Source: Bacillus sp. (in: firmicutes) (GTDB lineage: Bacteria; Bacillota; Bacilli; Bacillales; DSM-1321). Taken from it: a stretch of DNA of 64,000 nt. The DNA lies in assembly GCA_051874035.1 (NCBI GenBank), contig JBJEFM010000077.1, positions 1,557-65,556 on the forward strand. Reading direction: 5' to 3'. Positions within the stretch are counted from its first letter, which is position 1; the number at the start of each line of letters is the position of its first letter. The translations under genes and the position numbers were made by a program. Shown piece after piece: positions 851-44,261 of this stretch. Below the pieces are notes generated by a model. That model made no database searches and was not told the origin of the DNA. It saw nothing but the letters and a program-made list of their open reading frames with translations.

Positions 851-1564
851 TTGTCTGGATTATTCATGGCACTTGGATATATCATAAAAGAATTTGTACT
901 GCTCGTTTCATATGTGAAGAATAATGCCTTTCCACAACCTTTATCGGCAAAGGATGAACAAAAATACTTACAATTAATGAGCAAAGGAGATCCTGAAGCA
1001 CGAAATATTTTAATCGAACATAATTTGCGTCTTGTCGCCCATATCGTGAAGAAGTTTGAAAATACGGGCGAAGAAACAGAAGATTTGATTTCCATAGGTA
1101 CCATCGGCCTCATCAAAGCTATTGAAAGCTACTCAGATGGAAAAGGAACAAAACTTGCCACCTATGCCGCGCGCTGTATCGAAAATGAAATCCTTATGCA
1201 TCTGCGCGCAACGAAGAAAACAAAAAAAGATGTATCCCTCCACGACCCGATTGGACAGGATAAAGAAGGAAATGAAATATCCCTGATAGATGTGTTGAAA
1301 TCAGAATCCGAAGATGTAATTGATACCATTCAATTGAATCTGGAGATTGAAAAAGTGAAGAAATATATTGATGTACTCGATGAAAGAGAAAAAGAAGTCA
1401 TTGTGAACCGCTTCGGACTCGGGACGTTCAAAGAAAAAACACAACGGGAAATCGCCAAAGAGCTGGGAATTTCACGAAGTTATGTATCACGCATCGAAAA
1501 GCGTGCACTCATGAAAATGTTCCATGAATTCTACAGAGCGGAAAAAGAGAGAAAAAAATCATAA
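851..1564 (+). CDS. sigK: Pro-sigma-K, mother-cell sporulation sigma factor, uninterrupted
   Basis: TTG start after GGGGTGA. The 20-aa pro-sequence ...[16 protein letters not shown] is followed by [35 protein letters not shown] and the region-4 [17 protein letters not shown]. Confidence 0.97.
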
Positions 1565-1902
1565 AGTGAATCTTTGATAAGCGGGTTCTTCACCTCAGCC
1601 TATCATTAGATGAACCAATCGGGTTGTTATAGGCACTTTGATCTCCCGCTTGCTCATCTATGTCTTCACTTCTGTGCCGGAGCGGGAATCTTAGTGCCTG
1701 TTAAACGGGATAAAGTGAATCTTTGATAGGCGGTTCTTTACCCCCGCCTATCATTAGATGAACCAATCGGGTTGTTATAGGCACTTTGATCTCCCGCTTG
1801 CTCATCTATGTCTTCACTTCTGTGCCGGAGCGGGAATCTTAGTGCCTGTTAAACGGGATAAAGTGAATCTTTGATAGGCGGTTCTTTACCCCCGCCTATC
1901 AT
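1561..1902 (+). repeat. Head-to-tail array of ~148-bp bcr1-like structured repeats (2 full copies plus a 5' fragment)
   Basis: ATAAAGTGAATCTTTGATA starts at 1561, 1710 and 1858. The sequence 1598-1902 has an exact 148-bp period, with internal inverted repeats. Confidence 0.92.
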
Positions 1903-1977
1903 ATTACATGTCCGCCTTCCTCCTTATGCACCCTCAACCAATAGAAAAAAAGCCCCCTATTCTAGAGAGCTTTTACT

Positions 1978-2232
1978 TTACTGTATAGAATCCTGTTCTT
2001 CCGCTTGAATGGCTTTTTTCTTATAACGAATCGATAACGTAAAGAATAAAGCGGAACTACATAAAAAAACAAACGTGGATATAATCAATATAGTTGTATT
2101 CATTGTTCCTTCAATAAGGGAAATGGACGTTCCTAAATAAAGAAAGACACTTAAACATAGAAGTGTAAAACCATAGCGTTTATAATCAACCATCTTCTCA
2201 TGAAAGACTGTATTATTGGTAGACTGTTTCAC
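1978..2232 (-). CDS. yrhC: YrhC-family small membrane protein
   Basis: 84 aa with the K..DYKRYGFTLL motif and two hydrophobic segments, in the syntenic position downstream of mtnN. Confidence 0.75.
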   Translation of the reverse strand: MKQSTNNTVFHEKMVDYKRYGFTLLCLSVFLYLGTSISLIEGTMNTTILIISTFVFLCSSALFFTLSIRYKKKAIQAEEQDSIQ

Positions 2233-2347
2233 AAAGAATCACCTACACTCTCTATAATTTGTACTTTTACACTGTAACATAATCATAGAGGGCATATCCT
2301 ATGTAATAGTTGGCAGCTTTGGCATTGAAAACTTAACCAAAATCAAA

Positions 2348-2386
2348 AACCCCCTAAGTTGAATTTTCAGTCCAACTTAAGGGGTT
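2348..2386 (-). terminator. Intrinsic terminator after mtnN
   Basis: AACCCCCTAAGTTG...CAACTTAAGGGGTT stem, followed on the minus strand by TTTTTGATTT. Confidence 0.75.
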
Positions 2387-2429
2387 CACTTCATGGCCGG
2401 CAGCTTTTTATGTGGATAAAGATATGCCC

Positions 2430-3128
2430 TTATGCTTTTAATTCCGCGACGATATTCATAACAAGCTGCGAGGAGTTCACAGCGGCTGTTTCTAGGAATT
2501 TATCGAATGAAATATTGGATTCTTTCCCTGCAATATCCGATAAAGCGCGGATGACAACAAAAGGAATCCCGAATTGGTACGCCACTTGCGCGATTGCCGC
2601 AGCTTCCATTTCCACTGCTTGCAGGTCTTGAAATTTCGTTCTTACAAATTCTACACGCTCAGGATCATTCATGAATGAATCCCCTGTAGCAATCAGGCCT
2701 TTAGCAACTTGCATGCCTTGAATATGTTCAGCGGCTCTTTCCGATGCCTCGATTAACTTCTCGTCAGCTACATAAGTTGGCGGCATTTGCGGAACTTGAC
2801 CATAAGCATAACCGAAGATTGTTGCATCCACATCATGATGCACAACTTCTGAAGAAATAACCACATCGCCTACTTCCAGATTTTTTGCATATCCGCCCGC
2901 TGAACCTGTATTAATAACGGCTGTCGGCTGATATTTCTCCAATAGAATAGTCGTCGACATCGCTGCATTCACTTTACCGATCCCTGATTTAAGTAAAACG
3001 ACATCCACACCGTCCAATGTACCGACATTGAATTCGCAACCGGCGATTACCTCTTGTTGTACATCTTCCATTTTGTTTCGTAGTATTTGTACCTCTTCTT
3101 CCATTGCTCCAATGATTGCGATTTTCAT
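2430..3128 (-). CDS. mtnN: 5'-methylthioadenosine/S-adenosylhomocysteine nucleosidase
   Basis: [33 protein letters not shown] and RALSDIAG motifs. Confidence 0.97.
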
Positions 3129-3146
3129 TATTTAACACCCTTCTCT

Positions 3147-3788
3147 TTATAATTTAATAGCTTCAAGCATCCACACAAACCGATTGCACGGCTTGAATGA
3201 AACCACAAAGCCATTGTCGTCAAATAGACTTTGCAAATAAGGAATTGTTGTATAGTATTCTGTTCGAAGATCCTTCGCCAATTGGGTAAAACCACTGATT
3301 TCCGCATCTGAAATCGCTCGCTGATGGGCTTCTCCCGTTTCATACATCGTATCTGCAAACACTATTTTACCACCTTTTATTAACAAGTTGCCATATCGTT
3401 TCACAGCAACGGCTTTTTCTTGGTCGGTTAAATGATGAAAGGCATATGTGCTGACAATCGAATCGACGGATTCCACAGCCGGGAACTCCAGAAAATCCCC
3501 TTCATGAAAAACAACATTTCCTTGTTGGATTTTCCGCTCGGCAATTTCACGCATAGGCATGGATGGTTCAATGGCGGTGACACTACGGCCTTTATCAAGC
3601 AACTTGACTGTCAGGTTGCCTGTCCCGGCCCCGAACTCCAGCACATGTCCTGCAGATGCTGCCGCTACGCTTTCCAGAATTTGCTCATACCCACGGAAAA
3701 CTTCTTCATATTCTACATCGTGCCCACTTACCGTCCGATCATAATCTTCTGCCCACTCTTCAAAAATCGGTAAAAATTCTCTCCCCAT
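3147..3788 (-). CDS. yrrT: Class I SAM-dependent methyltransferase YrrT
   Basis: Start MGREF at 3788; the ORF track extension lacks an RBS. Contains motif I VLEFGAGTGNLT and STYAFHHL. Directly upstream of mtnN as in B. subtilis. Confidence 0.88.
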   Translation of the reverse strand: MGREFLPIFEEWAEDYDRTVSGHDVEYEEVFRGYEQILESVAAASAGHVLEFGAGTGNLTVKLLDKGRSVTAIEPSMPMREIAERKIQQGNVVFHEGDFLEFPAVESVDSIVSTYAFHHLTDQEKAVAVKRYGNLLIKGGKIVFADTMYETGEAHQRAISDAEISGFTQLAKDLRTEYYTTIPYLQSLFDDNGFVVSFKPCNRFVWMLEAIKL

Positions 3789-3913
3789 TCTTCTCGCCCC
3801 TTTGTTGATTATTCTGATTAACATACTATGTTTTAAAATTCTATTCGATTTAAGAAAAAACGTGCCGAACATGATATAATTTTTTGTACATATTATCCGA
3901 CCAGGAGGAAGAA

Positions 3914-4123
3914 ATGAATATTTCGTTTGATTTAATTGAAGATAAAGTGGAATTCTTTGAAGCGACAACCCTGCAAGACCTTGAGAAGAAGATTCAAGCG
4001 CAAATCGACATCAACAAAACCATTCTACTCACCGTTCATTCTGTCTCTCATCAGTTGCATGTAAGCGAAGACGGCCGGAAGCTATATAGCGCAGTCGTCC
4101 ATTTCAAAAATAAAAAAGCCTGA
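3914..4123 (+). CDS. yrzA: YrzA / DUF2536 family protein
   Basis: RBS AGGAGG then MNISFDLIEDKVEFFEA...YSAVVHFK; divergent from yrrT as in B. subtilis. Confidence 0.85.
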   Translation: MNISFDLIEDKVEFFEATTLQDLEKKIQAQIDINKTILLTVHSVSHQLHVSEDGRKLYSAVVHFKNKKA

Positions 4124-4164
4124 TGCGCTTCCTATTTGTAAATAGAGAAGAGCGTCAGGCTTTT
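4114..4164. terminator. Bidirectional terminator between convergent yrzA and yrrS
   Basis: AAAAGCCTGATGCGCTTC...GAAGAGCGTCAGGCTTTT, with an A-run and a T-run on the two sides. Confidence 0.75.
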
Positions 4165-4173
4165 CTTTTATAG

Positions 4174-4866
4174 TCACTTCAGTTTTTCCACTTTTGTCGG
4201 TTTCCAGCCTTGGCCATCAACCCATTGAATATATACTTTATATTTTGATCCATCGCCTTTTGATAAAACGGTGCCTTCCGCTTTATCCGGAGCGCCGCCA
4301 TTCCCCAACCAGAGAACGGTCATGCCGCTTTGATCGATGCCCGCCCCGTAAGCCAAGGCTTTCTCCATTTCATTCCAGTCCGTAGTTCCTTGTGTATATG
4401 TTGTTACATGCTCGCCGGTTTGTTCCGTGCCGATAGGCTCCCAGCTCTCATTCACGCGTGTTTCTTCCACCGATGGGTTGCCGCTGTTCTCGACAATCCG
4501 GTCATCTTCCTCCGGTTTCTTTTCTACATCTGCAGAATCCTCTTTATCCTCATCGGTTGTATCTTCTTCATCTGTTTTTTCCGGATCATTCGTCTTTTCA
4601 TCGTCTGCATCCTGATCCAAACCATTGGTAGTATCTTCATCATCTTTAGCTGTTTCTTTCTCATCATCTTGTACTTGCTGCGATTTATTCTCTTTATTCG
4701 GAGTGGCTGTTTCTTTATCGTCTTTCCCTAAGAAGATCGAAGCGCTCACAATGATAATCGCAACAATAACAATAGTTAGAAGAATATTATAAACAGTATT
4801 TGCTTTTCTTTTTTTACCCACTTTTTCAGAACGAGAAGTAAGTCTAGATGGTTTATCGTCTCTCAT
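4174..4866 (-). CDS. yrrS: YrrS family protein (N-terminal TM, acidic linker, DUF1510 C-terminus)
   Basis: TM segment at aa ~25-46 and a C-terminal WEPIGTEQ...WLGNGG...YKVYIQWVDGQGWKP. Confidence 0.88.
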   Translation of the reverse strand: MRDDKPSRLTSRSEKVGKKRKANTVYNILLTIVIVAIIIVSASIFLGKDDKETATPNKENKSQQVQDDEKETAKDDEDTTNGLDQDADDEKTNDPEKTDEEDTTDEDKEDSADVEKKPEEDDRIVENSGNPSVEETRVNESWEPIGTEQTGEHVTTYTQGTTDWNEMEKALAYGAGIDQSGMTVLWLGNGGAPDKAEGTVLSKGDGSKYKVYIQWVDGQGWKPTKVEKLK

Positions 4867-4942
4867 TCATATCACCCCACCTTTTTATTCAACCCTTATT
4901 GTAACAGTCTTGTTTCCGATTTTGAAGTAAATACGTATTTTT

Positions 4943-6727
4943 CTACTCTTCGTTTTTATTCGAAGGCTTGTTTTTCTGCAATTCCATGATACGTCCGATA
5001 TACTCCTTTGCCGCCTTTGTGGCACTTCCGTTGGGCAATTGCCCATCCTCGTCCAGTTTCACTACAGCAATCGCATATTTAGGATTTTCCACAGGAAAAT
5101 ATCCGCCAAACCAGCTGTTCACTTTTCCTTTAGCTTGGTTTGTTTGCGCCGTTCCCGTCTTGCCTGCCACCTCAATCGGCAAATCGCGCATATGCATGGC
5201 CGCTGTCCCTTTCTCATTCTGGGTCACACCTGTCAGCAATTGTTGAAGTTGCTTCGCTGTCCGAGGCGCAATTTTTTTCCCATCGATATCTATATCTTCG
5301 AATTCTGCCGCTGTCGTACCATTTGCAAATTGAATCTTACTGACTGCTTTCACCATTTTTCTTTCCCCATTACGGGCGATTGTGGCCATCATATTCGCCA
5401 CGCCCAATGGGGTCGCTTGCACATCCTTCTGTCCAATGGCTGTTTGGGAGACGAAATTCACATCTTTCCGATCCGTTTCTTCTAACCAGACACGGCCTGC
5501 TTCTTCACGGAACAATTGCTTAACATGCGAATGAAAGACAGTGCCATTCCATCCCGATTGACCGATGAGCTGCAGTTTCTCCGCGTATTCCTCTACCAGA
5601 CCAGGATTTTTCTTGGATAGCTCTACAGCCACGTCGGCAAACGTCCGATTGCAGCTTTGGGCGAAGCTATCCGTGAAATTCAACATCCCTAATGGTTCGG
5701 AACGGTTTTGATCGACCATTCCATTGATGGTAAGATTGCAATTATATAACGTTTGCTCATCTATTAGGTGTTCTTCAATGGCCGCAGCAGCGACTACTGT
5801 TTTAAATACAGAGCCGAGTGCCGCTTGCGTAAACATCGCATTCTTGGCTCCATCGCCTTCATTCGGATCGGACCCGACTTGCGGCCTCGAAACAGACGCT
5901 GCGATTTCGCTTGATTCGATATCGATAAGAATGAGCCCGCCTTTTCGTATATGGTTCTGGTCCACAATTTCCTCGGCGGCTTGTTGCAATTCCGAATCCA
6001 ATGTCGTCATAACACGTACCGGATATAACGGGTTGCCCGGCGCTAAATATTTCACATTAATGCCGAATAAAGGCCCCCCTATGCCATCCACATGATAAAC
6101 AAGCTTCGATTCACCTTCTGAGAGCAAGAATTCATCCAGCGTTTGTTGTAAGCCTTTATCGCCCACTTTCGTCTGGGGAGAAAGATATCGACCTCCATAA
6201 CGCTGCTGTTTCAACTCAGCGGATTCACTTAACCCTCCGATTAAATGTTGAGCAATTGTATGCTTGGTCGGCATATTGCGAATTGCTGCGAATACACCTG
6301 GCGTCTTCAATTCGTTGATTTGTTCCATTTGCCGTTCAGTAAGAAGAACCGGTTGATCGTCTATTGAAAAAATAAAGGGTTCCTTCGCATGCTGCAGCGC
6401 TTCTGTTACATTTGACGCCGGTACATCTATAATGTCCGCTAACTCTTCCACAGGCCATGCCATCTTCTTTAGAAACGGAAACAGAATGAGCGTCGGCACT
6501 TGTTCATGGTTGAGCGGTTCCCCTATGCGGTCGTAAAACTTGCCCCGCCCGTCATCGAGTTCGATGCTCTGTATACGCTGGTCCACACTTGCTTCAATTA
6601 AGTCAATATGGTGCTTCCCGAATGTTTCCGTGCTCACTAGCTGAATTTGAACAAGCCTTGCTATCAGTACACATAAAAGAAAAAGAAACAGGCCGGCGAT
6701 ACCTATCGCTCTTTTTTTCTTCAGCAT
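4943..6727 (-). CDS. pbpI: Class B penicillin-binding protein (PbpI/YrrR type)
   Basis: N-terminal TM and RG.FYDR motif, with intact SxxK (SVFK), SxN (SCN) and KTG motifs; synteny with yrrS. Confidence 0.85.
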   Translation of the reverse strand: MLKKKRAIGIAGLFLFLLCVLIARLVQIQLVSTETFGKHHIDLIEASVDQRIQSIELDDGRGKFYDRIGEPLNHEQVPTLILFPFLKKMAWPVEELADIIDVPASNVTEALQHAKEPFIFSIDDQPVLLTERQMEQINELKTPGVFAAIRNMPTKHTIAQHLIGGLSESAELKQQRYGGRYLSPQTKVGDKGLQQTLDEFLLSEGESKLVYHVDGIGGPLFGINVKYLAPGNPLYPVRVMTTLDSELQQAAEEIVDQNHIRKGGLILIDIESSEIAASVSRPQVGSDPNEGDGAKNAMFTQAALGSVFKTVVAAAAIEEHLIDEQTLYNCNLTINGMVDQNRSEPLGMLNFTDSFAQSCNRTFADVAVELSKKNPGLVEEYAEKLQLIGQSGWNGTVFHSHVKQLFREEAGRVWLEETDRKDVNFVSQTAIGQKDVQATPLGVANMMATIARNGERKMVKAVSKIQFANGTTAAEFEDIDIDGKKIAPRTAKQLQQLLTGVTQNEKGTAAMHMRDLPIEVAGKTGTAQTNQAKGKVNSWFGGYFPVENPKYAIAVVKLDEDGQLPNGSATKAAKEYIGRIMELQKNKPSNKNEE

Positions 6728-6735
6728 AAATAAAA

Positions 6736-6762
6736 CACCTCGTCACTATTGTCGACGAGGTG
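6736..6762 (-). terminator. Stem-loop after greA
   Basis: CACCTCGTC/GACGAGGTG 9-bp stem, with TTTTATTT following on the minus strand. Confidence 0.65.
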
Positions 6763-6779
6763 CCTTTATTTAAAACCTA

Positions 6780-7256
6780 TTATTTAACAGAGATGATACG
6801 TACATTCATTTCACCGGCCGGTGTCTGAACAGCAACTTCCTCGCCAACAGCTTTGCCGATTAAACTCTTTGCGATTGGGGAGTCATTTGAGATCTTTCCT
6901 TCAAACGGATCGGCTTCTGCACTGCCCACGATTGTATATGTTTCTTCATCGCCATCAGGAAGCTCTACAAATGTCACAGACTTCCCTAAAGTTACAGTAT
7001 CAGAATCCAATTCGCTTTCTTCGATGATTTTCGCATTGCGGATCATATTCTCGATCGTTGTGATGCGGCCTTCAACGAATGCTTGCTCCTCTTTAGCTGA
7101 ATCATATTCCGAGTTCTCTGACAAATCCCCAAAGCTACGAGCGATTTTAATGCGCTCAACTACTTCTTTACGCTTAACGGATTTCAGATTTTCTAATTCC
7201 TGCTCTAATTTCTGTTTACCTTCTTTAGTCATTGGGAAAACCTTTTCAATTGCCAA
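6780..7256 (-). CDS. greA: Transcription elongation factor GreA
   Basis: TTG start after AAGGAGTG. Contains [31 protein letters not shown] and ISNDSPIA. Confidence 0.97.
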
Positions 7257-7449
7257 AACCATTCACTCCTTCTACGGATTACAACGAGTCCACTCGTTTT
7301 TCTATACAATTATGTAAAAATACATAATTGCGCGTCCTTTTAAAAAGGGCGCGCATCATCACTTTTCTAGAATGACTTTACGAAGTATTCCCAAGCGGAA
7401 TTACCATTATCATCCTTTAATAAATATATACAGTATACAAGACATGTTA

Positions 7450-8085
7450 TTACAAAATTGTCTTTTGTTCAAGGATTGTTTTAATTTTCGTTACTAATAA
7501 ATCAATCGCAACCCGATTCTGTCCGCCTTCAGGAATGATAATATCCGCATATTTCTTCGTAGGCTCGATGAATTGATTGTGCATCGGACGAACAGCGGTC
7601 ACGTATTGGTCGATCACTGATTCAATGGAACGGCCACGTTCTTTGATATCCCTTACTAAGCGTCTAAGAATGCGGATGTCCGCATCTGTATCTACAAATA
7701 GCTTCATGTCCATAAGGTCGCGGAGTCTTTTATCTTCTAAAATCAGAATGCCTTCTAGAATAATGACATCCTTCGGCTCCACATTGATGACTTCTTTTGA
7801 GCGTGTATGAAGAGCGTAGTCATATACAGGCTTCTCGATGCTTTGGTAGTCCAGCAGTTTATTGATATGTTCGACCAATAAATCATTATCGAACGCTAAA
7901 GGATGGTCATAATTCGTCGTTAAACGTTCCTCGAACGGCACATGACTTTGATCCTTATAATAATAATCCTGTTCCAGCATCAAAATTGAACGGCCTGTAA
8001 AGCTTTCAATAATCGCTCTTGTTACACTTGTCTTTCCGGAGCCTGAACCTCCCGCTACACCTATGACGATCGGCTTTTGTTTCAT
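7450..8085 (-). CDS. udk: Uridine kinase
   Basis: Walker [18 protein letters not shown] and VIILEGIL. Confidence 0.96.
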
Positions 8086-8088
8086 ATA

Positions 8089-9357: not shown

Positions 9358-9383
9358 GGCTATTCCTCCATTTCATCTTTTCA

Positions 9384-16314: not shown

Positions 16315-16570
16315 CAAAAAAAACCCCCATCCCTCAAAAAGGGACGAGAGCAACTCGCGGTACCACCCTAATTATGAACAAATAACACTCCAAGTATTCA
16401 TTCATCACTTTAGACGCCTTAACGCGGCGAACGGTAGGGATTAGCTACACTCCAGATTAGCTTTCTGTTATCCTTCATCTAGAATTTCTTTCAGCCTAGG
16501 GAAATTCCTCTCTTTAGTACATTGTTTGTACCTTTAGATGGTCTATAACATACTCGATCTTTCATCGTTT
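16315..16570 (-). promoter_or_regulatory. T-box riboswitch leader of alaS, specifier GCU (Ala)
   Basis: T-box AATTAGGGTGGTACCGCG near 16356-16373, with AGAGA and GGCTGAAAG stem-I motifs. AGUA/GAAA loop followed by GCU at 16459-16461. Terminator with U-run near 16316-16350. Confidence 0.95.
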
Positions 16571-16592
16571 TTTACAAATTCACCTATTAAGG

Positions 16593-16643: not shown

Positions 16644-16791
16644 CCGTTTAACAGGTACTAAAACTCCCGCTCCAGCACAGCAGTGAAAACACAGATATAC
16701 AATCGGGAGATCAAGTACCTGCAACAGCTAAGATTGGTTCATCTTTGATAGCTGCGGGATAAAAACCCCCACTATCAAAGATTCACTTTAT
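16644..16791 (-). repeat. bcr1-like structured repeat, minus orientation, terminal GATAAA missing
   Basis: Minus strand ATAAAGTGAATCTTTGATAGTGGGGG...AGATGAACCAATC...CAGGTACTTGATCTCCCG...GAGCGGGAGTTTTAGTACCTGTTAAACGG. Confidence 0.9.
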
Positions 16792-17864
16792 AAACGTTGT
16801 CTTTGTCTTACTTTCATAAAATGCACTTTAGCATGCATAATCGCCACTTTAGCCACAGCCAGCACAGGAACCGCGACTATCAATCCAAGCACTCCTCCCA
16901 CTTCTCCGCCAATGAACAAGCTAAGCATAATGAGCAAAGGGTGCATATGAAGGCTCTTGCCGACAATCAAAGGCGAGAGAATATTGCCTTCGATGAATTG
17001 CAGCCCAAAGACAATCACCGCCACCCAAATGATATGGTGGGGATTGGTCGCCGCAGCAATCACCATAGCCGGGATCGCTCCGATAATCGGACCGAAATAA
17101 GGAATAACGTTGGTAATCCCGATAATAATCCCCAAGAGCAAAGAATATTTCACTTTAATCAACCATAACAATAATGCAGAAATCGCACCGACTAAGATGC
17201 AAACTATAATTTGGCCGCGTATATAGTTTCCTAATGATTGTTCAACATCTTGCATGAATGCCGCACTTTGCTTTCGAATTTTAGCGGGTGTGATATACCA
17301 GGCCGCCCTTTTCATAAGCTCCCAATCTTTCAGGAAATAGAATGCGATCAAAGGAACAATCGCAAAGATAACAACGAAGTCAAACATATTCACTAAATAA
17401 CCCATAACTTTTGAGAGGAGCGACTCCACCTTCTTCTCGAAGAAAAGGATTCCATCCTGAATGCGTTCTTTATACTCACTTGGCCAATTGGACGTTTTCT
17501 GGTCAATGGAATCCAGGATGGACGTATATTTCTCCGTGAAATAAGGAGTACTTTTCATTAAATCATCCAATTCATGCACAACAACCGGAATTCCTTTATA
17601 TATAGAGAAACCTAAACCTCCGAAAAACACGAAATAAATAAGTAAAATACTGATGCTGCGATGCAATCCCCGCTTATATAGCTTCTCTACTACCGGATGC
17701 AATAAATAAGAAATAAATGCGGCTAGTACAAAGGGCAGCAACGCGAGTCCGAAGATTTCCAATATTGGAAGCCAAATCGGCTTTAACTTAAAAAATAATA
17801 AAATAGTAAAGAACACTAGCAATAAAAAACCTAATCGGTAAAACCAATTGACACTTATCTTCAT
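16788..17864 (-). CDS. yrrI: AI-2E family (PerM-like) transporter YrrI
   Basis: Multi-TM protein with NVIPYFGPIIG and QFIEGNILSP. Start ATG 17864 after AAGGAGG. Confidence 0.9.
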   Translation of the reverse strand: MKISVNWFYRLGFLLLVFFTILLFFKLKPIWLPILEIFGLALLPFVLAAFISYLLHPVVEKLYKRGLHRSISILLIYFVFFGGLGFSIYKGIPVVVHELDDLMKSTPYFTEKYTSILDSIDQKTSNWPSEYKERIQDGILFFEKKVESLLSKVMGYLVNMFDFVVIFAIVPLIAFYFLKDWELMKRAAWYITPAKIRKQSAAFMQDVEQSLGNYIRGQIIVCILVGAISALLLWLIKVKYSLLLGIIIGITNVIPYFGPIIGAIPAMVIAAATNPHHIIWVAVIVFGLQFIEGNILSPLIVGKSLHMHPLLIMLSLFIGGEVGGVLGLIVAVPVLAVAKVAIMHAKVHFMKVRQRQRL

Positions 17865-17943
17865 ATGCCGGCCTCCTTGCCCATAGCTTTTGTACAAAAA
17901 AAGTTTTTCATGCACAATAAAGCTGTATTTCCGGGAAATAAGC

Positions 17944-17991
17944 AAAAAAAGGCAGCCTGCAAGTAGCGATTACTTATCAGGCTGCCTTTTT
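17944..17991 (-). terminator. Terminator after yrzR-yrzQ
   Basis: AAAAAAAGGCAGCCTG...CAGGCTGCCTTTTT. Confidence 0.8.
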
Positions 17992-33102: not shown

Positions 33103-33262
33103 ATAAAGTGAATCTTTGATAGGTGGGGGGTTGCCTTCATCCCCCACCTATCATTAGATGAACCAACCTTAGTTGTTACAGGTACTTGATCTCCCACTTA
33201 CACATCTACGCTTTCACTGCTGTGTTGAAGTGGGAACCTTAGTACCTGTTAAACGGGATAAA
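33103..33262 (+). repeat. Complete bcr1-like element, 155 bp plus a duplicated ATAAA
   Basis: ATAAA at 33103-33107 and 33258-33262. Stems TGATAGGTGGGGG/CCCCCACCTATCA, ACAGGTAC/GTACCTGT and TCCCACTT/AAGTGGGA. Confidence 0.92.
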
Positions 33263-35607: not shown

Positions 35608-35656
35608 AAAAGACGGGGAAACTATATGCGACTAGCATATAGGCTTCCCCGTCTTT
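35608..35656 (-). terminator. Terminator downstream of 6S RNA
   Basis: AAAGACGGGGAA...TTCCCCGTCTTT long stem. Confidence 0.8.
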
Positions 35657-35703
35657 AAACGAAAACCCTCTCATACATAGGGTATATATACAAATCAAAG
35701 CGC

Positions 35704-35891
35704 AAGAGTCCCGATTATGCCGTTTCCGCCTTCGTTTTGAACCCGCTCTACGCAGGTGGGTGCCCTGTTCACAAACTTTGTAAGTCCACTATGAAAGAGG
35801 CATTTACGCATTTGCGAAACTGCGAGCTCCCGAAACTATAAGTGTTCGGTCAAAACTTATAGGTGAAGATAACGTACACATCAGGACTCTT
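35704..35891 (-). ncRNA. ssrS: 6S RNA (6S-1 / bsrA type)
   Basis: Ends AAGAGUCCUGAUGUG... and ...GGCGGAAACGGCAUAAUCGGGACUCUU pair to close a ~188-nt rod. Located between aspS and yrvM, as is B. subtilis 6S-1. Confidence 0.92.
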
Positions 35892-35904
35892 ACTTGTTGA
35901 AAGT

Positions 35905-35934
35905 ATCATATCATATTGAAATGCTCTTTTTCAA
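35905..35934 (-). promoter_or_regulatory. Putative sigma-A promoter of 6S RNA
   Basis: TTGAAA-N18-TATGAT with an extended -10 TG; +1 falls near the RNA 5' end. Confidence 0.65.
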
Positions 35935-35952
35935 GAGTTCCAATATCCTTCT

Positions 35953-37728
35953 TTAGTCCTTTTTTTGTCCAGTTAATGCCAAACGAAGCTCGATTAATTG
36001 ATCTACACTTACCGGGCTTGGAGCGTTTGTCAGCAAGCAGCTTGCGCTTGCTGTCTTAGGAAACGCAATCGTATCTCTCAGGTTCGATCTGCCGGCCAAT
36101 AGCATAACAAGACGGTCTAAGCCAAGGGCGATACCGCCGTGTGGAGGCGTACCGTATTCGAAAGCATCCAATAAGAAACCGAATTGCTCTTGTGCTTCTT
36201 CAGCAGAGAATCCAAGAACTTTGAACATTTTCTCTTGAACGTCCCTTTCAAAGATACGCAGTGAACCGCCGCCAAGCTCATAACCATTCAATACTAAGTC
36301 ATATGCTTGCGCACGAACATGCTGAGGCTCTGAATCCAGCTTATCAAGATCTTCCCTAAATGGCATTGTAAATGGATGGTGAGCCGCGAAGTAACGGCCT
36401 GATTCTGCATCATATTCCAGAAGCGGCCAATCTGTCACCCATAGGAAATTGAATACACTTTCATCAATTAGTCCTAAATCTTTGCCCAATTTCACACGGA
36501 GAGCACCTAATGTATCCGCTACAACTGTCTTGTTATCAGCTACGAATAGCAATAAGTCACCATCTTCTGCTTCTAACGCAGAGATTAATGCTTGTCCGTC
36601 TTCACCTTCAAAGAATTTCGCGATTGGACCTTTCAGCCCTTCCGCATCAACCTTCAACCAAGCTAACCCTTTCGCTCCATAAACAGCTGCGAATGCGCCT
36701 AATGCATCGATATCTTTACGGGAATATTTCTCCGCAGCACCTTTCACATTAATTGCTTTCACCTGTCCGCCTGTGGCAACAGCGCTTGTGAATACTTTAA
36801 AGTTGGAGTCTTTTACGATTTCCGATACATCCACAAGTTCTAAACCAAAACGGGTATCCGGCTTGTCGGAACCGAAGCGGCTCATTGCTTCGTTATATGT
36901 CATGCGTGGCAGGGGCAATGTAAGATCGATGCCTTTAACGTCTTTCATAACCTTTTGCATCATGCGCTCTGCCATATCCATAATATCTTCCTGGCTCATG
37001 AAGCTTGTCTCGATATCGATTTGTGTGAATTCAGGTTGGCGGTCGGCACGTAAATCTTCATCACGGAAACAACGCGCGATTTGATAATAACGTTCGAATC
37101 CGGCAACCATCAATAATTGTTTGAATAATTGCGGACTTTGCGGCAATGCATAGAATTCTCCGTCATGTACACGGCTAGGCACTAAATAGTCGCGCGCGCC
37201 TTCCGGTGTGCTTTTCGTTAACATCGGTGTCTCGATATCCAAGAAACCTTCCGCATCCAAGTAGTTGCGCACAGTTTTCGTTACATCATGGCGCATTTTG
37301 AATGTTTCATACATTTTCGGACGGCGAAGGTCCAAATAACGATATTTCAAACGAAGATCTTCAGAAACGTCACCTTTATCCTCAATTACAAACGGTGGTG
37401 TTTTCGCTTCATTTAGAATTGTTACTTCTTCGGCTGTCACTTCGATTTTCCCTGTTTTCAAGCTCGTGTTAATCGTTCCTTCAGCACGGGCAACAACAGT
37501 GCCTACCACACTTAATACATATTCATTGCGGATTTTCTCCGCTTTCGCTAAAGCTTCTTGTGATAGATCCGGATTGAATACAACTTGAACAAGGCCGGTG
37601 CGGTCGCGAAGATCGATGAAGATCAGCCCTCCAAGATCTCTTCTTTTCTGCACCCATCCTTTCAGTGTTACTTTTTCTCCAATGGCACTTTCAGAAACTT
37701 CGCCACAAAAATATGATCTGCCAAACAT
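35953..37728 (-). CDS. aspS: Aspartyl-tRNA synthetase
   Basis: [42 protein letters not shown] and [12 protein letters not shown]. Confidence 0.99.
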
Positions 37729-37743
37729 CCCTTTTTTCCTCCC

Positions 37744-39015
37744 TTATTGCTGTTCTTTTTTGAACTCTTCGATGAAACTTGCTAGGTTAAGCTCTTTTTG
37801 CTCTCCGGATTCCATGTTTTTCAATGTAATCTTGTTATTATTCAGTTCATCGTCGCCAAGTACCGCTACAAAACGCGCCTTAGCACGGTCTGCCGCTTTA
37901 AATTGCGCTTTCACTTTTCGATCATTATAATCTTTATCTACTGAGAAGCCATTTTGGCGTAATTCATTGACTAATTTAACGCTATAATCTTTTGCTGCAT
38001 CGCCAAGCGCCACTACATAAACATCAATCGCTTGTTCAATCGGCAATTCAACACCTTCAGCATTCAATGCTGCAATCAACCGCTCGATACTTAGCGCAAA
38101 GCCGATTCCCGGAACTTCCGGACCGCCGAAATTTTCTACCAGACCATTGTAACGGCCGCCTCCGCAAAGCGTCGTAATCGCTCCGAAGCCCTTCGCATTA
38201 CTCATGATTTCAAACGCAGTATGGTTGTAATAATCCAATCCGCGCACTAAAGTCGCATCAATTGTATATGGAACACCCATCGCATCTAAATGCTTCAATA
38301 CTTTATCGAAGTAAGCGCGGGACTCTTCGTTTAAATAATCGAAGATCGAAGGCGCTGTTCTCATAAGTTCGTTGTCGCGGTCTTTCTTGCAATCTAGGAT
38401 ACGAAGCGGATTCTTCTCTAAACGATTCTGGCAATCGCTGCAGAATTCGCCGATATGAGGCTTGAAGTGCTCTATCAAAGCTGCACGGTGCGCAGTGCGG
38501 CTTTCAATATCGCCTAAAGAATTAATAACAAGCTTCAATTCTTGTAATCCGAGTGCGCGGTACAGATTCATAGCCAAGCTGATAACTTCTGCATCAATCG
38601 CTGGATCTTCACTGCCGATTGCTTCCACTCCGAATTGTACGAATTGGCGGAAACGGCCTGCCTGTGGTCGCTCATAGCGGAACATCGGTCCATTATAGAA
38701 CAACTTCACCGGCTGTGAGGCCCATCCGAACATTTTATTTTCAACGAAGGAACGCACAACAGAAGCTGTGCCTTCAGGACGAAGTGTCAAGCTTCGATCA
38801 CCGCGATCAGTGAACGTGTACATTTCTTTCTGTACGATATCTGTTGTTTCACCTACACCTCTTTGAAATACTTCTGTATGTTCAAAGATCGGCGTGCGTA
38901 TTTCATTATATTGATATCTTCTGCACAAGTCTCTTGCTACATTTTCAATGTATTGCCAAATCGCCGCTTGTTCAGGAAGAATATCTTGCGTCCCTCTAGG
39001 GATTTGCATTTTCAT
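37744..39015 (-). CDS. hisS: Histidyl-tRNA synthetase
   Basis: [27 protein letters not shown] and LVRGLDYYN. Confidence 0.99.
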
Positions 39016-39040
39016 TGGTTTTCCTCCTTTTTATCACATA

Positions 39041-39310
39041 CAAAAAAACCCTCGCCTCTTGTAAACTAATATTACAAGGGACGAGAGTTATTAATTCCCG
39101 TGGTACCACCCTAATTCAAAATGCATTATGCATTTCCTCAAAAGAAACAGTTAACGCCTGCCTACGTTCTTCTCCTACTAAAGACCGCTCTTTCAGAGAG
39201 AAACCTACGAAGTGTTCGTTCATTAAGCGACGATGTAGGAAAGCTTGCAGCCTATGACTTTCCCTCTCTTTACCCGAGCATCTTAACTACTTTTCTCCAT
39301 CTCTGGTTTT
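39041..39310 (-). promoter_or_regulatory. T-box riboswitch leader of hisS-aspS, probable specifier CAC (His)
   Basis: T-box AATTAGGGTGGTACCACGG near 39098-39116, with AGAGAGG and GGCTG stem-I motifs. GAA-CAC at 39212-39217; terminator with U-run at 39041-39088. Confidence 0.92.
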
Positions 39311-39338
39311 CAAATTATAATGTATGATTATTTTACTA

Positions 39339-39367
39339 ATGATAATTGTCTCTTCAAGTATTGTCAA
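39339..39367 (-). promoter_or_regulatory. Sigma-A promoter of hisS
   Basis: TTGACA-N17-TATCAT. Confidence 0.85.
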
Positions 39368-39490
39368 GAACTTGCCTAAAGATTCATGAAGCCTTTATAC
39401 TTTTTTGGATCCCCGCCGCGGCCTGGGCAACCTTTCCCTGCGCATGCCAACTTTATCTTTTTTTTATCTTCCGAAAAAAGTTATAATACC

Positions 39491-39667
39491 TTATGAGCGC
39501 CCTAGGTATTTTTTTAGTTTTTTCACATCGCCGACGTGCAGGCCGAACTCGCTGGCTAATTCGACCATATTGTTATTTTGTTCTCTCTGGATAAAGTCAT
39601 GGAAATCAACACCGAATAATTGATTCATCCCCGATTGAGTCAAACTGTTCTTTTCACTGCATTTCAT
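39491..39667 (-). CDS. yrzK: YrzK-family small protein (58 aa; not in ORF track)
   Basis: Manual translation MKCSEKNSLTQSGMNQLFGVDFHDFIQREQNNNMVELASEFGLHVGDVKKLKKYLGRS, with RBS AGGAGG, syntenic between yrvJ and hisS. Confidence 0.8.
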   Translation of the reverse strand: MKCSEKNSLTQSGMNQLFGVDFHDFIQREQNNNMVELASEFGLHVGDVKKLKKYLGRS

Positions 39668-39806
39668 TTCTTATCCTCCTAATGATATGTTCGCTAATCA
39701 TTATTTATCCTGTCCTGTTTAAAGGAATTCTTTCACAGGAAACTGGATTTTTTTCATCAGCAAAAAAATCATGACGTAAGTCTACAAATATAGAGGTGTC
39801 ACCACG

Positions 39807-41084
39807 TTGAAGAAAACAAGCATTCTTGTATGGAGCATTATCATCCTATGGATTTCTTCCGCTAATGTAAGCTATGCAGAAGGAGAAACCATTACCATCA
39901 ATAAATCAGGTGTGAACGCAAGAAGCGGTCCCGGCTTGGAATATGGGGTGATTATGCAATTGCCGGCAGGCAAAACCTATCCAATCATTGAGCAGAAAAA
40001 TGACTGGGTCAAAATCAAGGCAAACGGCCGGGAAGAAGCATGGGTTGCGGAATGGCTTGTAACGAGGGATGAATCCCAACAGAAGTTGAAGCCTCCTTAT
40101 GCGACCATCACAGCCTCTTCCATAGCCGTCTATAGCAAACCTTCCTTCCAAGGAAAAAAAGTAGCAGCGGCCAAAAAAGGCGAAAACTACAAAGTGGTTC
40201 AAGAAAAAAACAATTGGTATCAAATACAGCTATCCGAAAAGGAAAAAGGCTGGGTGCCTAAGTGGTTCACACGCAGCGAAGTGAAAGCCGCTGCTAAATC
40301 CACCAAAGAAAAACAGCGGGTCACTGTGCTCTACGATGAAGTGCCATTGCGAAAAACAACATCCCTTTACAGCGACAGTATAAAAACGGTCAATCAAGGA
40401 GATGAACTGACAGTTACTGCCTTAAACAGCGATACATACGAAATCAAACGTTTCTGGGGCAGAAAAGCATACATAGCAGGCTGGCTTGTCCAAGCAGCCG
40501 AAAACACACAACAAATTACAAGACAGGGCAAACAACATGACTTTACCGGTAAAACCATTATCATTGACCCTGGTCACGGTGGAAATGATAGCGGAACAAT
40601 TGGATACAGCGGTGCATTGGAGAAAGATGTGACGAAAGAAACCGCACAGCTGTTGCAGCGGATGCTGGTCGCTTCCGGCGCGAACGTGGTCATGACGCGT
40701 GAAGGCGATGAATACCAGCCTCTCTCTTCACGTGTGAAATTATCCAACATGAACCGGGCCGATGCCTTTATAAGCATTCATTATGACAGCAATGAACAAC
40801 GCAATCTAAAAGGTATTACGCCGTACTATTACCACAGTTTCCAGAAACCGCTGGCTAACGCGATTTATTACAGCTTGCAGAAAGAAAGCGGCCTGACGAT
40901 TAAAGACACGCGCTATGGAGACTATCACGTACTGCGCCATAACAGCCGGCCTTCTGTCTTACTTGAGCTCGGCTATTTAAGCAATAAGGAAGAAGAGCAA
41001 ATCGTCACGTCCTATTCTTATCAAAAAAGCGTTGTAGCGGCTATTTATGATGGTTTAGGCAATTATTTTACAGGCGGCAAGTAA
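39807..41084 (+). CDS. yrvJ: SH3b-domain N-acetylmuramoyl-L-alanine amidase (YrvJ-like)
   Basis: Signal peptide, SH3b repeats (VNARSGPG) and Amidase_3 motifs IDPGHGG, EKDV, FISIHYD and LLELGYLSN. Confidence 0.88.
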   Translation: MKKTSILVWSIIILWISSANVSYAEGETITINKSGVNARSGPGLEYGVIMQLPAGKTYPIIEQKNDWVKIKANGREEAWVAEWLVTRDESQQKLKPPYATITASSIAVYSKPSFQGKKVAAAKKGENYKVVQEKNNWYQIQLSEKEKGWVPKWFTRSEVKAAAKSTKEKQRVTVLYDEVPLRKTTSLYSDSIKTVNQGDELTVTALNSDTYEIKRFWGRKAYIAGWLVQAAENTQQITRQGKQHDFTGKTIIIDPGHGGNDSGTIGYSGALEKDVTKETAQLLQRMLVASGANVVMTREGDEYQPLSSRVKLSNMNRADAFISIHYDSNEQRNLKGITPYYYHSFQKPLANAIYYSLQKESGLTIKDTRYGDYHVLRHNSRPSVLLELGYLSNKEEEQIVTSYSYQKSVVAAIYDGLGNYFTGGK

Positions 41085-41230
41085 CGATTCGAAAAAAATG
41101 CTGCCGTAAAGAAAATATAGCTGATCCGCTCCGGAATATATGGGATACGTATCCTTTATTTTATATCCTGTGAAACGGATGACAATAAAAAAGACACTCA
41201 ATTATTCGAGTGTCTTTTTTATGTTTCCGA

Positions 41231-41668
41231 TCATTTCTCTAATATAAGCGTCACCGGTCCATCGTTAATAAGTTGTACATCCATCATTGCGCCAAATATA
41301 CCGGTTTCCACTTTGACGCCTTTTTGCTTCAATGCTTCATTGAAGCCGTTGTATATTTCCAGCGCATGATCCGGCCTTGCCGCCGCCATAAAATTAGGTC
41401 TTCTGCCTTTTTGGCAATCACCGTATAGTGTGAACTGCGATACAGATAAGATATCGCCCCCTACATCCAGAAGCGAATGATTCATCTTGCCGCCTCCATC
41501 TTCAAATATACGAAGATTAACAATTTTATCAGCCAGGAAGCCCGCGGCTTCCATTGTATCTTCATGTGTAACACCGACAAGAAGGACAAGGCCCCGTTCT
41601 ATGCGGCCCACCACTTCGCCATCGACTTTCACGCTTGCTTGCTTAGCTCGTTGCAATACTACCTTCAT
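41231..41668 (-). CDS. dtd: D-aminoacyl-tRNA deacylase
   Basis: [27 protein letters not shown] and NDGPVT. Confidence 0.97.
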
Positions 41669-41679
41669 GACTAAACCCC

Positions 41680-43872
41680 TTAATTCATAATCCTTCTTAC
41701 TGCATACACATCAGGAATTTGTTTGATCCGGTCGACTACTTTCTGTAGATGGCTCACATTTTGGATTGAAATCGACATATTGATAACAGCCAGCTTGTTA
41801 CGGTCTGTTTTACCGGAAACCGCTGAAATATTTGTCTTTGTTTCAGTAACGACTTGCAGGACTTCATTCAATAGACCTCTGCGGTCATAACCGTTGATCT
41901 CGATGTCCACATTATATTCTTTCGAATCATTATAGCTGGTTTCCCATTCAACCGGAATCAAACGCGCCTCTACGTCCTCCCCGACCACATTCGGGCAGTC
42001 GCTTCTGTGCACTGAAACGCCCCGGCCTTTCGTAATAAAGCCTACAATTTCATCGCCTGGCACAGGGTTGCAGCATCTCGATAAACGAATCAATAAATTA
42101 TCTATTCCTTTTACACGGACACCTGACTCGCGTTTCCTTGGCGTTGTGTATGCCTTTAATGAAGAAGTGGCCTCTGTAATGGTCGACAGTTGCTCTTGCT
42201 CTTTCAGCTTACGCCATTTCTCTGTTAAACGGTTGGCAATTTGCAGAGCAGTGATGCCATTATATCCGACCGCAGCATACATATCTTCATTATTGGTGAA
42301 GTTGAATTTTTCGGCTACACGCTTAACGTTCTCCGGTGTAAGAATTTCTTTCAGGTCGAAGCCCATATTCTTGATTTCTTTCTCAACAAGCTCTCGCCCT
42401 TTATCCACGTTCTCTTCACGGCGCTGTTTCTTGAAGTATTGACGGATTTTATTCTTCGCTTGTGAAGTTTGCGTAATCTTAAGCCAATCCTGGCTTGGTC
42501 CATACGAGTGTTTTGATGTAAGGATTTCAACGATATCGCCTGTCTTCAATTTGTAATCAAGAGGCACCATCTTACCGTTCACTTTCGCCCCGATTGTTTT
42601 GTTTCCGATTTCGGAATGGATGCGGTAAGCAAAATCAATCGGAATCGAACCGGACGGCAATTCAATGACATCGCCTTTCGGTGTGAAGATAAATACCATA
42701 TCGGAAAACAAGTCGATTTTTAAAGATTCCATGAATTCTTGGGCATTTGTCGCATCATCCTGGAATTCCAGAATCTCTCTGAACCATGTAAGCTTTTCTT
42801 CCAATGGCTCCGCTTTTATTTCCTTGCCTTCTTTATAAGCCCAATGCGCCGCGATACCATACTCGGCAATTCGGTGCATTTCAAACGTCCGGATCTGCAC
42901 TTCAAGCGGATCTCCTTTTGGACCGATTACTGTTGTATGAAGCGATTGATACATATTCGGCTTAGGCATTGCGATATAGTCTTTAAAACGGCCGGGCATC
43001 GGCTTCCAGCACGTATGGATGATTCCAAGGACCGCATAGCAATCTTTGATGCTATTTACTTGGATGCGTACGGCCAATAAATCATAAATTTCGCTGAATT
43101 GTTTATTCTGCAGCGCCATTTTGCGATAGATACTATAAATATGTTTCGGGCGTCCATATATTTCCGCTTTGATATTGACATCTTCTAAACGCTCCCGCAC
43201 TTCATCCACTACGTCTTCTAAATACTCTTCCCGCTCGTTCCGCTTCTTCTTCATCAGATTCACAATCCGGTAATACTGCTGTGGATTTAAATACCGGAGC
43301 GCGATATCTTCAAGCTCCCATTTGATTGTGGAAATCCCGAGACGATGGGCAAGCGGAGCAAAGATTTCCAGTGTTTCATTCGAAATACGGCGTTGCTTCT
43401 CGACCGGCAGATGCTTAAGTGTACGCATATTATGCAGACGGTCGGCAAGCTTAATCAAAATTACACGGATATCCTGGGCCATGGCCACAAACATTTTGCG
43501 GTGATTCTCCGCTTGCTGCTCTTCGTGCGATTTATACTTGATCTTACCAAGCTTTGTCACGCCATCTACGAGCATCGCCACTTCGTGGTTAAAATTCTCG
43601 CTCAGGTCCTCCAATGTCACATCAGTATCTTCCACAACATCGTGAAGAAAACCAGCTGCAACCGTCGACGCATCCAGTTCAAGATTGGCAAGGATACCCG
43701 CCACTTGGATCGGATGGATAATATATGGCTCCCCCGATTTTCTATATTGTTCCTTATGGGCATCCTCCGCATATAGGAATGCCTTTTCCACTATTGCAAC
43801 ATCTTCCGGTTGCAAATACGCCTTTGTTCGTTCAATCACTTGTTTTGAGGTTAATATTTGTTCGTTCGCCAT
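41680..43872 (-). CDS. relA: Bifunctional (p)ppGpp synthetase/hydrolase Rel
   Basis: HD domain LHDVVED, RPKHIYS, YQSLHTT, and TGS and ACT domains. Confidence 0.98.
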
Positions 43873-44059
43873 GAAACCACCTTAAATGTATAGTAGAATG
43901 CTTGGTCAATTACTTCTAAGCTAAAAAGCAAATTCCGACTTTTCTATGTTAAAACGGTTGTTCAGATCACTAATCCGTTCGGCTCTGAAAATAAATATAA
44001 ATTTATATTATATGAGCTGTATAAAAAATAAAACATCATTTTTTTAATGTATTGTTACT

Positions 44060-44088
44060 ATTATCGAGAAAAAATGAAGGAATGTAAA
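44060..44088 (-). promoter_or_regulatory. Putative sigma-A promoter of rel-dtd
   Basis: TTTACA-N17-GATAAT, implying a ~180-nt 5' UTR. Confidence 0.5.
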
Positions 44089-44226
44089 GTGGTTAATACT
44101 TCATTTTCCATATATAATTATCTAAAGCGCTTACATATCTAATAAACCGCCTGCAATTATCTACCATTATTTTCATTTCATTCAAAAACAAACACAAAAA
44201 ACCTGCCTATATTTATTTATTTTGCC

Positions 44227-44261
44227 AAGTGGGAGCCTTAGTACTTGTTAAACAGGATAAA
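44227..44261 (+). repeat. Truncated right end of the bcr1-like element
   Basis: AAGTGGGAGCCTTAGTACTTGTTAAACAGGATAAA versus AAGTGGGAACCTTAGTACCTGTTAAACGGGATAAA (33228-33262): 32 of 35 identical. Confidence 0.85.

Follow-up and report, generated by a model that had tools for sequence, protein, structure and literature searches.

Sequence comparison places the dispersed repeat carried by a 64,000-nt stretch of DNA from Bacillus sp. (assembly GCA_051874035.1, contig JBJEFM010000077.1, here C77, positions 1557-65556; this whole stretch is referred to as the window) in the bcr1 family, i.e. group A of the Bacillus cereus repeats, in a host that lies outside the B. cereus group. The repeat is a mobile non-autonomous element that underwent a recent burst to about 300-440 copies, and the half of it that contains hairpin B, read with TTTAT first, is on alignment homologous to the left end of IS605-family insertion sequences (ISs) encoding tnpA and tnpB. 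The reading preferred here is that of a PATE-like element that is probably moved in trans by the Y1 transposase TnpA, with TTTAT as an adjacent target motif and not as a duplication. The link between bcr1 and IS605 is put forward as a testable new proposal rather than as an established relationship, and among the papers searched none was found that connects bcr1 with IS200/IS605 elements, TnpB or PATEs. The mobilisation of bcr1 was described as 'yet to be investigated' in reviews up to 2019, and its mode of movement has been called unknown since 1999.

Within the B. cereus group, bcr1 ranks as the repeat of highest abundance, with a length of ~155 bp, flanking TTTAT motifs and a mobility described as 'site-specific recombination-like' (PMC6542083, PMC6199540). 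It forms two independent stem-loops that are kept by compensatory changes (PMC3184786), and copies are transcribed within untranslated regions (UTRs) in B. cereus (PMC3446304). The repeat described here agrees with bcr1 in its size of ~155 bp, in TTTAT on both sides, in two 'cruciform-like' stem-loops with compensatory changes and in an intergenic, high-copy occurrence on chromosomes and plasmids with numbers that vary between genomes. In blastn comparisons, all 160 nt of the consensus align, with 71-76% identity, to plasmid sequences of B. cereus, B. mycoides and B. thuringiensis (E-values down to 1e-20), and the B. cereus-group copies are collinear with the window repeat, block by block. The B. 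cereus-group genomes contain at least 40 full copies each, among 179-326 first-look candidates. An earlier note, made from the window sequence alone, had described a bcr1-like, structured and non-autonomous interspersed repeat, and this description is borne out; its further suggestion of a distinct family is not upheld, because the consensus aligns over its full length with the ~155-bp TTTAT-bounded high-copy repeat found on B. cereus-group chromosomes and plasmids. Among the group A repeats bcr1-bcr3, bcr1 is the probable assignment, on the basis of length, bounds, fold and abundance. Two differences from previous descriptions concern the host and the copy number: according to earlier reports, bcr1 is confined to the B. 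cereus group and reaches at most 130 full copies, whereas the present genome, from outside that group, holds 165 full copies among 437 matches.

The host is a species of Bacillaceae outside the B. cereus group that belongs to the same genus as Bacillus massiliigorillae, B. testis, 'Peribacillus' faecalis and Bacillus sp. JJ722. A scan of species genomes with a pattern of the conserved 5' end was positive for these four relatives, for many B. cereus-group species and for Lysinibacillus and Oceanobacillus. Copies in the present host, in Lysinibacillus and in Oceanobacillus fall outside the reported host range, so that the restriction of bcr1 to the B. cereus group appears outdated and membership is not excluded by the host. 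Copy numbers and subfamilies are species-specific. In Lysinibacillus xylanilyticus, a tandem array (L092:3250-3800) consists of at least four short variant units of ~112 nt with one ATAAA per junction, in which hairpin B is reduced to GGGGCAGTTA...TACTGCCCC.

Intact copies share a fixed layout, which on the ATAAA-first strand reads ATAAA, GTGAATCTTT, hairpin A, ATTAGATGAACCAA.., the long hairpin B, GTTAAACGGG and ATAAA; on the complementary strand the same element reads TTTAT, CCCGTTTAACAGG, hairpin B, hairpin A and AAAGATTCAC-TTTAT. The consensus spans 160 nt with both pentamers, or 155 nt if one is counted. The pentamer ATAAA (TTTAT on the other strand) is present at 98-100% at the 5' end (n=266) and at 95-100% at the 3' end (n=227). 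Terminal inverted repeats are lacking: GTGAATCTTT (GTGAATC...) at one terminus does not recur in inverted form in GTTAAACGGG (...AAACGGG) at the other. Head-to-tail junctions with a single common pentamer occur 14 times in the genome. What looks like a half copy is in many cases an internal deletion that arose between short direct repeats and keeps both termini: a short form of ~91 nt, of which about 20 copies fit a strict pattern, lost hairpin B between two CTTAGT repeats, and other forms include chimeras of hairpins A and B joined at CCCCCAC(C/T)T segments and a mini form of ~55 nt. Hairpins A and B contain the same helix of 8-9 bp with the arms swapped, GGTGGGGG...CCCCCACC in one case and C(C/T)CCCAC(C/T)...(A/G)GTGGG(G/A)G in the other; this helix therefore supplies direct repeats at which internal-deletion variants arise. 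A polarity of 5' truncation, as a signature of retro-mobility, was ruled out, since true truncations occur at both ends and most half copies are internal deletions. A search of the genome for an autonomous version, with 5' and 3' modules separated by 0.5-4 kb, did not find one; the sole candidate, on contig C158, consists of two truncated copies that flank the housekeeping genes gnd and dinB.

The relationship to IS605-type elements emerged from comparisons with transposase loci. A profile hidden Markov model (HMM) of the repeat had no match at the Y1 transposase loci of congeners and other bcr1 hosts. Among 30 tnpB loci, matches immediately upstream of tnpB were obtained for L183, from a congener, and for L192, from B. 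bingmayongensis, both in the TTTAT-first direction. The left ends of these ISs are composed of TTTAT, 18 nt ending in GAGAA(G/T)A, the hairpin C(C/T)CCCACCTC...AGG(T/C)GGG(G/A)G and ATGAAT, and the corresponding end of the bcr1 family is composed of TTTAT, 21-22 nt ending in (C/G)TAAGA, the hairpin C(C/T)CCCAC(C/T)TC...A(G/A)GTGGG(G/A)G and ATCAA. In the joint alignment of IS and bcr1 ends (A3), both share TTTAT, a spacer, AAGA, C(C/T)CCCAC(C/T)TC...A(G/A)G(T/C)GGG(G/A)G with a common outer stem, and AT(G/C)AA. The strongest evidence for the link comes from the reciprocal comparison. A covariance model (R1) was built from five tnpB-IS left ends only, taken from B. cereus-group genomes and congeners, and its application to 191 kb yielded 27 matches, of which 26 are bcr1-family copies that match the whole model in the TTTAT-first direction. 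These matches start mostly at the terminal TTTAT (in a few copies 3-10 nt inside), with E-values between 1e-5 and 0.3 and 15 of them at or below 0.003; the window copy at 33172-33262 on the minus strand is included. The same model also finds a site ~100 nt upstream of the Y1 tnpA gene in a complete tnpA+tnpB element of the congener Bacillus sp. JJ722 (E = 1.6e-13), the right end of which terminates in TTCAC, as well as sites upstream of Y1 tnpA remnants, partial or interrupted by a stop codon, in B. cereus and B. bingmayongensis.

The bases 5' of the IS left-end hairpin track the target motif, with TTTAT accompanied by ...A and TTTAA by ...T, as is expected of the DNA 'guide' of this IS family, and bcr1 carries AAGA, the TTTAT type. 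Right ends of the IS family read CCCCCACTTC...AAGTGGnGGG followed by T(A/G)G and TTCAA or TTCAC. The genome under study itself contains a remnant of tnpB with a Cas12f-like TNB domain outside the window (C32:2830-3472, L031), truncated where the contig ends; the right end of this remnant, ...GGTGGGGGTAGTTCAC, matches a right-end model (R2) with E = 2e-6 and belongs to the same IS605-family lineage, which is thus present in this genome and in its congeners. The earlier note had pointed to a HUH/Y1 transposase flanked by the same ends as a possible source of mobility. This pointer proved correct, in that the shared left end was indeed found with IS605-family elements. The note's statement that the window encodes no mobilising enzyme stands.

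For the movement of the repeat, the mechanism proposed here starts from an IS200/IS605-family parent of the IS605 group, carrying tnpA and tnpB, of which the repeat would be a PATE-like derivative. Read with TTTAT first, the flanking TTTAT would serve as the transposon-adjacent motif (TAM), followed by a left end that has its spacer, AAGA at the 'guide' position and a hairpin with the C-rich arm first (hairpin B) in common with the autonomous elements. A Y1 (HUH) TnpA acting in trans would cut the top strand out in single-stranded form and then insert it 3' of a further TTTAT. The element terminates in ...TTCAC-TTTAT, where TTCAC is the right-end cleavage motif in related elements and the terminal TTTAT would represent the right cleavage site, which would explain TTTAT on both sides without a true target duplication. 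Each insertion would thereby make a new TAM, from which, together with slippage, the head-to-tail arrays with one common pentamer are proposed to result. Likewise, the hairpins would be recognition structures in single-stranded DNA that co-evolve with the transposase, and the compensatory changes within them are proposed to stem from this co-evolution. What we infer is that TnpA is the catalyst, where exactly the cleavages fall and that hairpin A together with the closing helix acts as the right end. A broader joint reading, to which we give an even chance, holds that bcr1-type repeats are single-stranded DNA 'peel-and-paste' parasites of IS605-lineage tnpA/tnpB elements across several Bacillaceae genera, in which TTTAT would be both TAM and right cleavage motif, the left-end hairpin the TnpA recognition site and hairpin A a new right end; the G-A closing helix would pair GTTCAWC with GWTTCAC, and one left-end guide would serve both cleavages.

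Several observations weigh against movement by TnpA. The own assembly yielded no Y1 TnpA gene, and an intact Y1 gene is also absent from the bcr1 hosts B. cereus AFS087218, L. xylanilyticus and B. massiliigorillae, with neither a Y1 nor a tnpB match in the L. xylanilyticus genome. The first of these absences says little, because the assembly contains no repeat of 400 bp or longer and no contig below 1.5 kb, so that insertion sequences are probably missing from it. In hairpin A the G-rich arm comes first, in contrast to the IS hairpins, and no counterpart of it was detectable in any IS end examined; the likeness to IS right ends is limited to motifs, namely the TGGTTCA(A/T) linker, TGGTTCAA and the TTCAC terminus, and the right-end model applied to the repeat re-matches hairpin B alone, and weakly. 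The short forms without hairpin B are multi-copy (about 20), which may reflect either recurrent slippage or movement without the left-end hairpin. In addition, a true 5-bp duplication of TTTAT would leave the same final sequence, and the replication-strand bias described below is weak.

The census of copies was obtained with an iterated nhmmer profile with a model of 160 nt, run over the whole assembly (3.74 Mb, 243 contigs, 42.8% G+C). The 437 matches, of which 165 span the full model, amount to 45.6 kb or 1.2% of the genome, a copy number far beyond chance. Young and old layers of copies can be distinguished: identity to the consensus reaches 95% or more in 51 full copies and stays under 80% in 47. 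Contig ends lie within 60 nt of a repeat copy in 143 of 486 cases (29%). Six copies or fragments are located in the window, at coordinates that nhmmer and direct reading of the sequence recover exactly as previously given, and nhmmer found no further copies there:

1561..1709, plus strand: array unit 1 (nhmmer match 1561-1714, E = 2e-40), with hairpin A diverged and hairpin B intact.
1561-1565, plus strand: 5' ATAAA of unit 1, which includes the TAA stop codon (1562-1564) of the sigK-like open reading frame (ORF) 851-1564.
1710..1857, plus strand: array unit 2 (nhmmer match 1710-1862), full-length, with one ATAAA in common with each neighbour.
1858..1902, plus strand: array unit 3, with ATAAA, the 5' strand of P1 and hairpin A only; it stops after CCTATCAT.
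16644..16791, minus strand: copy covering model positions 1-154, with the final ~6 nt including ATAAA missing; the stop codon of the transporter ORF 16788-17945 (minus strand) overlaps with the 5' ATAAA of this copy, which is positioned between this ORF and the T-box leader of the alanyl-tRNA synthetase gene (16337-16574).
33103..33262, plus strand: young full-length copy of 160 nt with both ATAAA pentamers, comprising P1 (33108-33115 with 33156-33163), hairpin A (33118-33152) and hairpin B (about 33178-33248); two minus-strand genes flank this copy, which is antisense to them, and its 3' ATAAA continues into an A-tract terminator.
44227..44261, plus strand: 5'-truncated 3' fragment, from the 3' arm of inner hairpin B to the terminal GGATAAA (model positions 126-160).

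Within the window, the array repeats with an exact period of 148 nt, which belongs to a subfamily with a short hairpin-A loop, and is 98% identical over 1584-1879. As this period is out of register with the element ends, the array grew at least partly by tandem duplication.

The distribution of the repeat in the genome is intergenic and terminator-proximal. Coding sequence makes up 83% of the genome, yet only 3 of 323 copies fall within an ORF of 100 aa or more; 25% are found between convergent genes, compared to 11.5% expected from ATAAA sites, and copies are depleted between divergent genes. In tandem gene contexts, 68 copies are in sense and 70 in antisense orientation. The stop codon of the upstream ORF falls within the 5' ATAAA pentamer in 13% of cases against a background of 4.5%, as exemplified in the window by the sigK-like gene and the transporter gene ending at 16788. 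The flank 5' of ATAAA is random and the 3' flank of the element is A-rich, which corresponds on the other strand to a T-tract before TTTAT. The target preference is therefore one-sided: a run rich in T precedes TTTAT on its 5' side, and the flank on the 3' side is random. The TTTAT-first strand coincides with leading-strand sequence in 64-70% of copies (p = 0.001-0.03), the direction predicted for insertion into the lagging-strand template; the availability of T-tract + TTTAT sites alone predicts 53-62%. The replication-strand bias is therefore real but weak, and site availability largely explains it. At the orthologous site 3' of sigK, the repeat is absent in at least eight congeners, with sigK genes that are 78-83% identical. 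In Bacillus sp. JJ722 (L151), a bcr1-family copy begins at the sigK stop codon (CTATAAAGTGATCC...), which could be either an old shared insertion or recurrent targeting of the same TAA-containing pentamer. Presence/absence polymorphism within the species was not detected, as GCA_034150105.1 and ERZ27258020 are 99.85-99.98% identical and contain the same copies. The mobility of the element is deduced from the number of full copies, the many near-identical ones among them, the unrelated flanks, the near-absence from ORFs, the absence from the orthologous sigK site of congeners and the deletion derivatives in which both termini persist.

The fold has three parts: a closing helix that contains tandem G-A pairs, hairpin A and the long hairpin B. 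[quoted passage not shown] The three-helix structure was set by hand, because the consensus that RNAalifold derived from 70 copies in a plain MAFFT alignment was poor, and pairs were then counted in comparison to slid partners and 500 shuffles. Pairing is observed in 88.4% of the cells, as opposed to 38-46% with slid partners; 26 of the 44 pairs show double-sided changes (118 cells), and none of the 500 shuffles reached the observed covariation. The outer stem of hairpin A alone occurs as GATAGG/CCTATC, AATCGG/CCGATT, GCTCGG/CCGAGC, GTTTGG/CCAAAC, GAATGG/CCATTC, CATTTGG/CCAAATG and other forms. Among the copies of the own genome, exchanges are found at pair 22/44 of hairpin A (T-A 88, C-G 30), at the outer pair 81/142 of hairpin B (T-A 113, C-G 10) and at its inner pair 94/129 (A-T 86, G-C 10). 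The closing helix GTGAATCT/AGATGAAC with its tandem G-A pairs is kept in 23 of the 26 copies and covaries itself (T11:A58 versus A11:T58), and two B. cereus-group variants replace the G-A pairs by G-C and A-T. The compensatory stem changes and the G-A closing helix that had been noticed in the window copies are thus real.

The direction of mismatches was also counted in both datasets. Across species, G-T (40) and A-C (43) mismatches are balanced in A2; within the own genome, G-T exceeds A-C (450 versus 346). Unpaired positions of the own-genome copies show the same tendency on the ATAAA-first strand, with C>T at 0.133 and G>A at 0.057 (2.3x), and the G-T excess is therefore explained by a mutation or subfamily bias. 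The direction of this C>T excess is opposite to the deamination expected for a single-stranded TTTAT-first strand, and strand-asymmetric mutation or a subfamily effect could underlie it. With RNA parameters, the ATAAA-first strand folds better by 4.75 kcal/mol, in 80% of copies; with DNA parameters, both strands fold equally well. A comparison with Rfam gave no family at the gathering score, and permissive E-values gave only chance matches to miRNA-like hairpins. The earlier note had proposed that G-U wobbles are preferred on the ATAAA-first strand and that the repeat is under selection for RNA structure. Neither claim is sustained: the wobble preference disappears across species, and selection for RNA finds no specific support given the symmetric mismatches, the equal orientations and a folding difference that does not discriminate in view of the mutation bias. 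Constraint at the level of DNA is consistent with the equality of G-T and A-C mismatches, the lack of a gene-orientation bias and the replication direction of 64-70%.

These results can be set against other explanations. One of them regards the ATAAA-first strand as a functional structured RNA, such as a 3'-UTR stabiliser, a terminator module or a small RNA, whose spread is secondary. The strong covariation of all three helices would suit such an RNA, as would the G-A pairs, which are tandem G-A on the ATAAA-first strand only and are exchanged for Watson-Crick pairs in two variants, the more stable RNA fold of this strand, the frequent stop codons in the 5' pentamer and the transcription of bcr1 within UTRs of B. 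cereus (PMC3446304). However, sense and antisense insertions are equally frequent, the balance of G-T and A-C across species is unlike that of functional RNAs, the own-genome wobble excess recurs in the loops, the strands are equivalent under DNA parameters, Rfam offers no family, and in B. cereus it is bcr3, not bcr1, that correlated with mRNA decay (PMC3446304); a primary RNA function is accordingly held to be improbable. It is even harder to credit that no transposition takes place at all and that the copies are inert relics which owe their spread to recombination and tandem duplication alone. The window array with its out-of-register period, the 14 head-to-tail junctions and the many internal-deletion variants are what such processes would leave behind, but they do not account for hundreds of copies in unrelated flanks, 51 of them nearly identical to the consensus, for precise and identical boundaries that are always TTTAT or for species-specific copy numbers and subfamilies.

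More weight, although still a minor share, is assigned to a different mechanism of movement, by a site-specific recombinase or a TTTAT-duplicating transposase, in which the IS605 likeness would reflect capture or common descent and movement would not at present depend on TnpA. In published accounts, TTTAT is a 5-bp direct repeat that becomes duplicated upon insertion, and a site-specific recombination-like process is proposed (PMC6199540, PMC6542083); TTTAT does flank nearly every copy on both sides; hairpin A is unlike any IS605 end, the presence of a Y1 gene correlates poorly with copy number across genomes, and the short forms without hairpin B are multi-copy. What speaks for TnpA instead is that the IS homology starts exactly at the TAM and that the guide bases are kept, which is hard to explain for an end that is not in use, and that the target preference is one-sided, as in IS200/IS605; a candidate enzyme for the other mechanism is neither known nor was one found, and the element lacks terminal inverted repeats. 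Integron attC sites, IS110 bridge-RNA systems, IS91/Helitron elements and XerCD/dif-type sites were considered and dropped, since target length, end motifs or context do not fit.

Among described systems, the closest parallel to movement by TnpA is offered by ISGst2, an IS605-family element of Geobacillus with the TAM TTTAT, the transposon-encoded motif (TEM) TTCAC and a TnpA that acts in trans, which coexists with PATEs (PMC10055086). The comparison with ISGst2 relies on its published description. Like the PATEs and ISGst2 of Geobacillus stearothermophilus, the repeat has TTTAT beside its left end, subterminal hairpins, no inverted terminal repeats, no protein-coding capacity, TTCAC near its right terminus and tnpB elements in the same genome; as with PATEs and their IS605-family relatives, its left end is homologous to that of tnpA/tnpB elements of the same and related genomes. 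It differs in a right half (hairpin A and closing helix) that is not recognisable as an IS605 right end, in ending with TTCAC-TTTAT instead of TTCAC and in the lack of an omega-RNA-like scaffold. ISGst elements reach ~47 copies, whereas the repeat is far more numerous and shows a weak replication-strand bias. REP/BIME sequences, associated with the domesticated Y1 protein RAYT, are also extragenic, often clustered palindromes that are thought to be moved by Y1-HUH enzymes via single-strand hairpins, but REPs measure 20-40 bp with a GTAG or CGTC head, in contrast to 155 bp, two different hairpins and TTTAT bounds, and the own assembly yielded neither RAYT nor any other Y1 gene. Classical miniature inverted-repeat transposable elements (Correia/nemis, RUP and BOX) share the small size, the non-coding, intergenic, high-copy and foldable character and the possible co-transcription with neighbours; they possess terminal inverted repeats that match ISs with DDE transposases and a duplicated target, unlike the repeat, whose termini are not inverted repeats.

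Three aspects of these findings are new. The bcr1 family reaches well beyond the B. cereus group; it can exceed 1% of a genome, where it breaks short-read assembly at 29% of contig ends; and half of the element corresponds to an IS605-family left end starting at TTTAT, which suggests how the repeat moves. If movement by TnpA is correct, the compensatory evolution of bcr1 would represent the co-evolution of DNA hairpins with a transposase and would not be evidence for a structured RNA, and the copies would mark places where tnpB/omega-RNA systems and TnpA have acted.

Additional features of the window include a 6S RNA at 35704-35890 on the minus strand (106.7 bits) and two T-box leaders on the minus strand at 16337-16574 and 39074-39312 (94.5 and 116 bits). 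The first T-box precedes the alanyl-tRNA synthetase gene and is located directly downstream of the minus-strand repeat copy. In-frame tandem repeats are present at 60933-61418 and 61884-62252, with periods of 45 nt and 39 nt (8 and 4-6 copies, respectively). Finally, positions 54620-54681 form a perfect palindrome of 31+31 nt without a spacer (TAAATAAACAAAAAAGGAAGCTGTCCCGGTT/...), which has the look of a bidirectional terminator.

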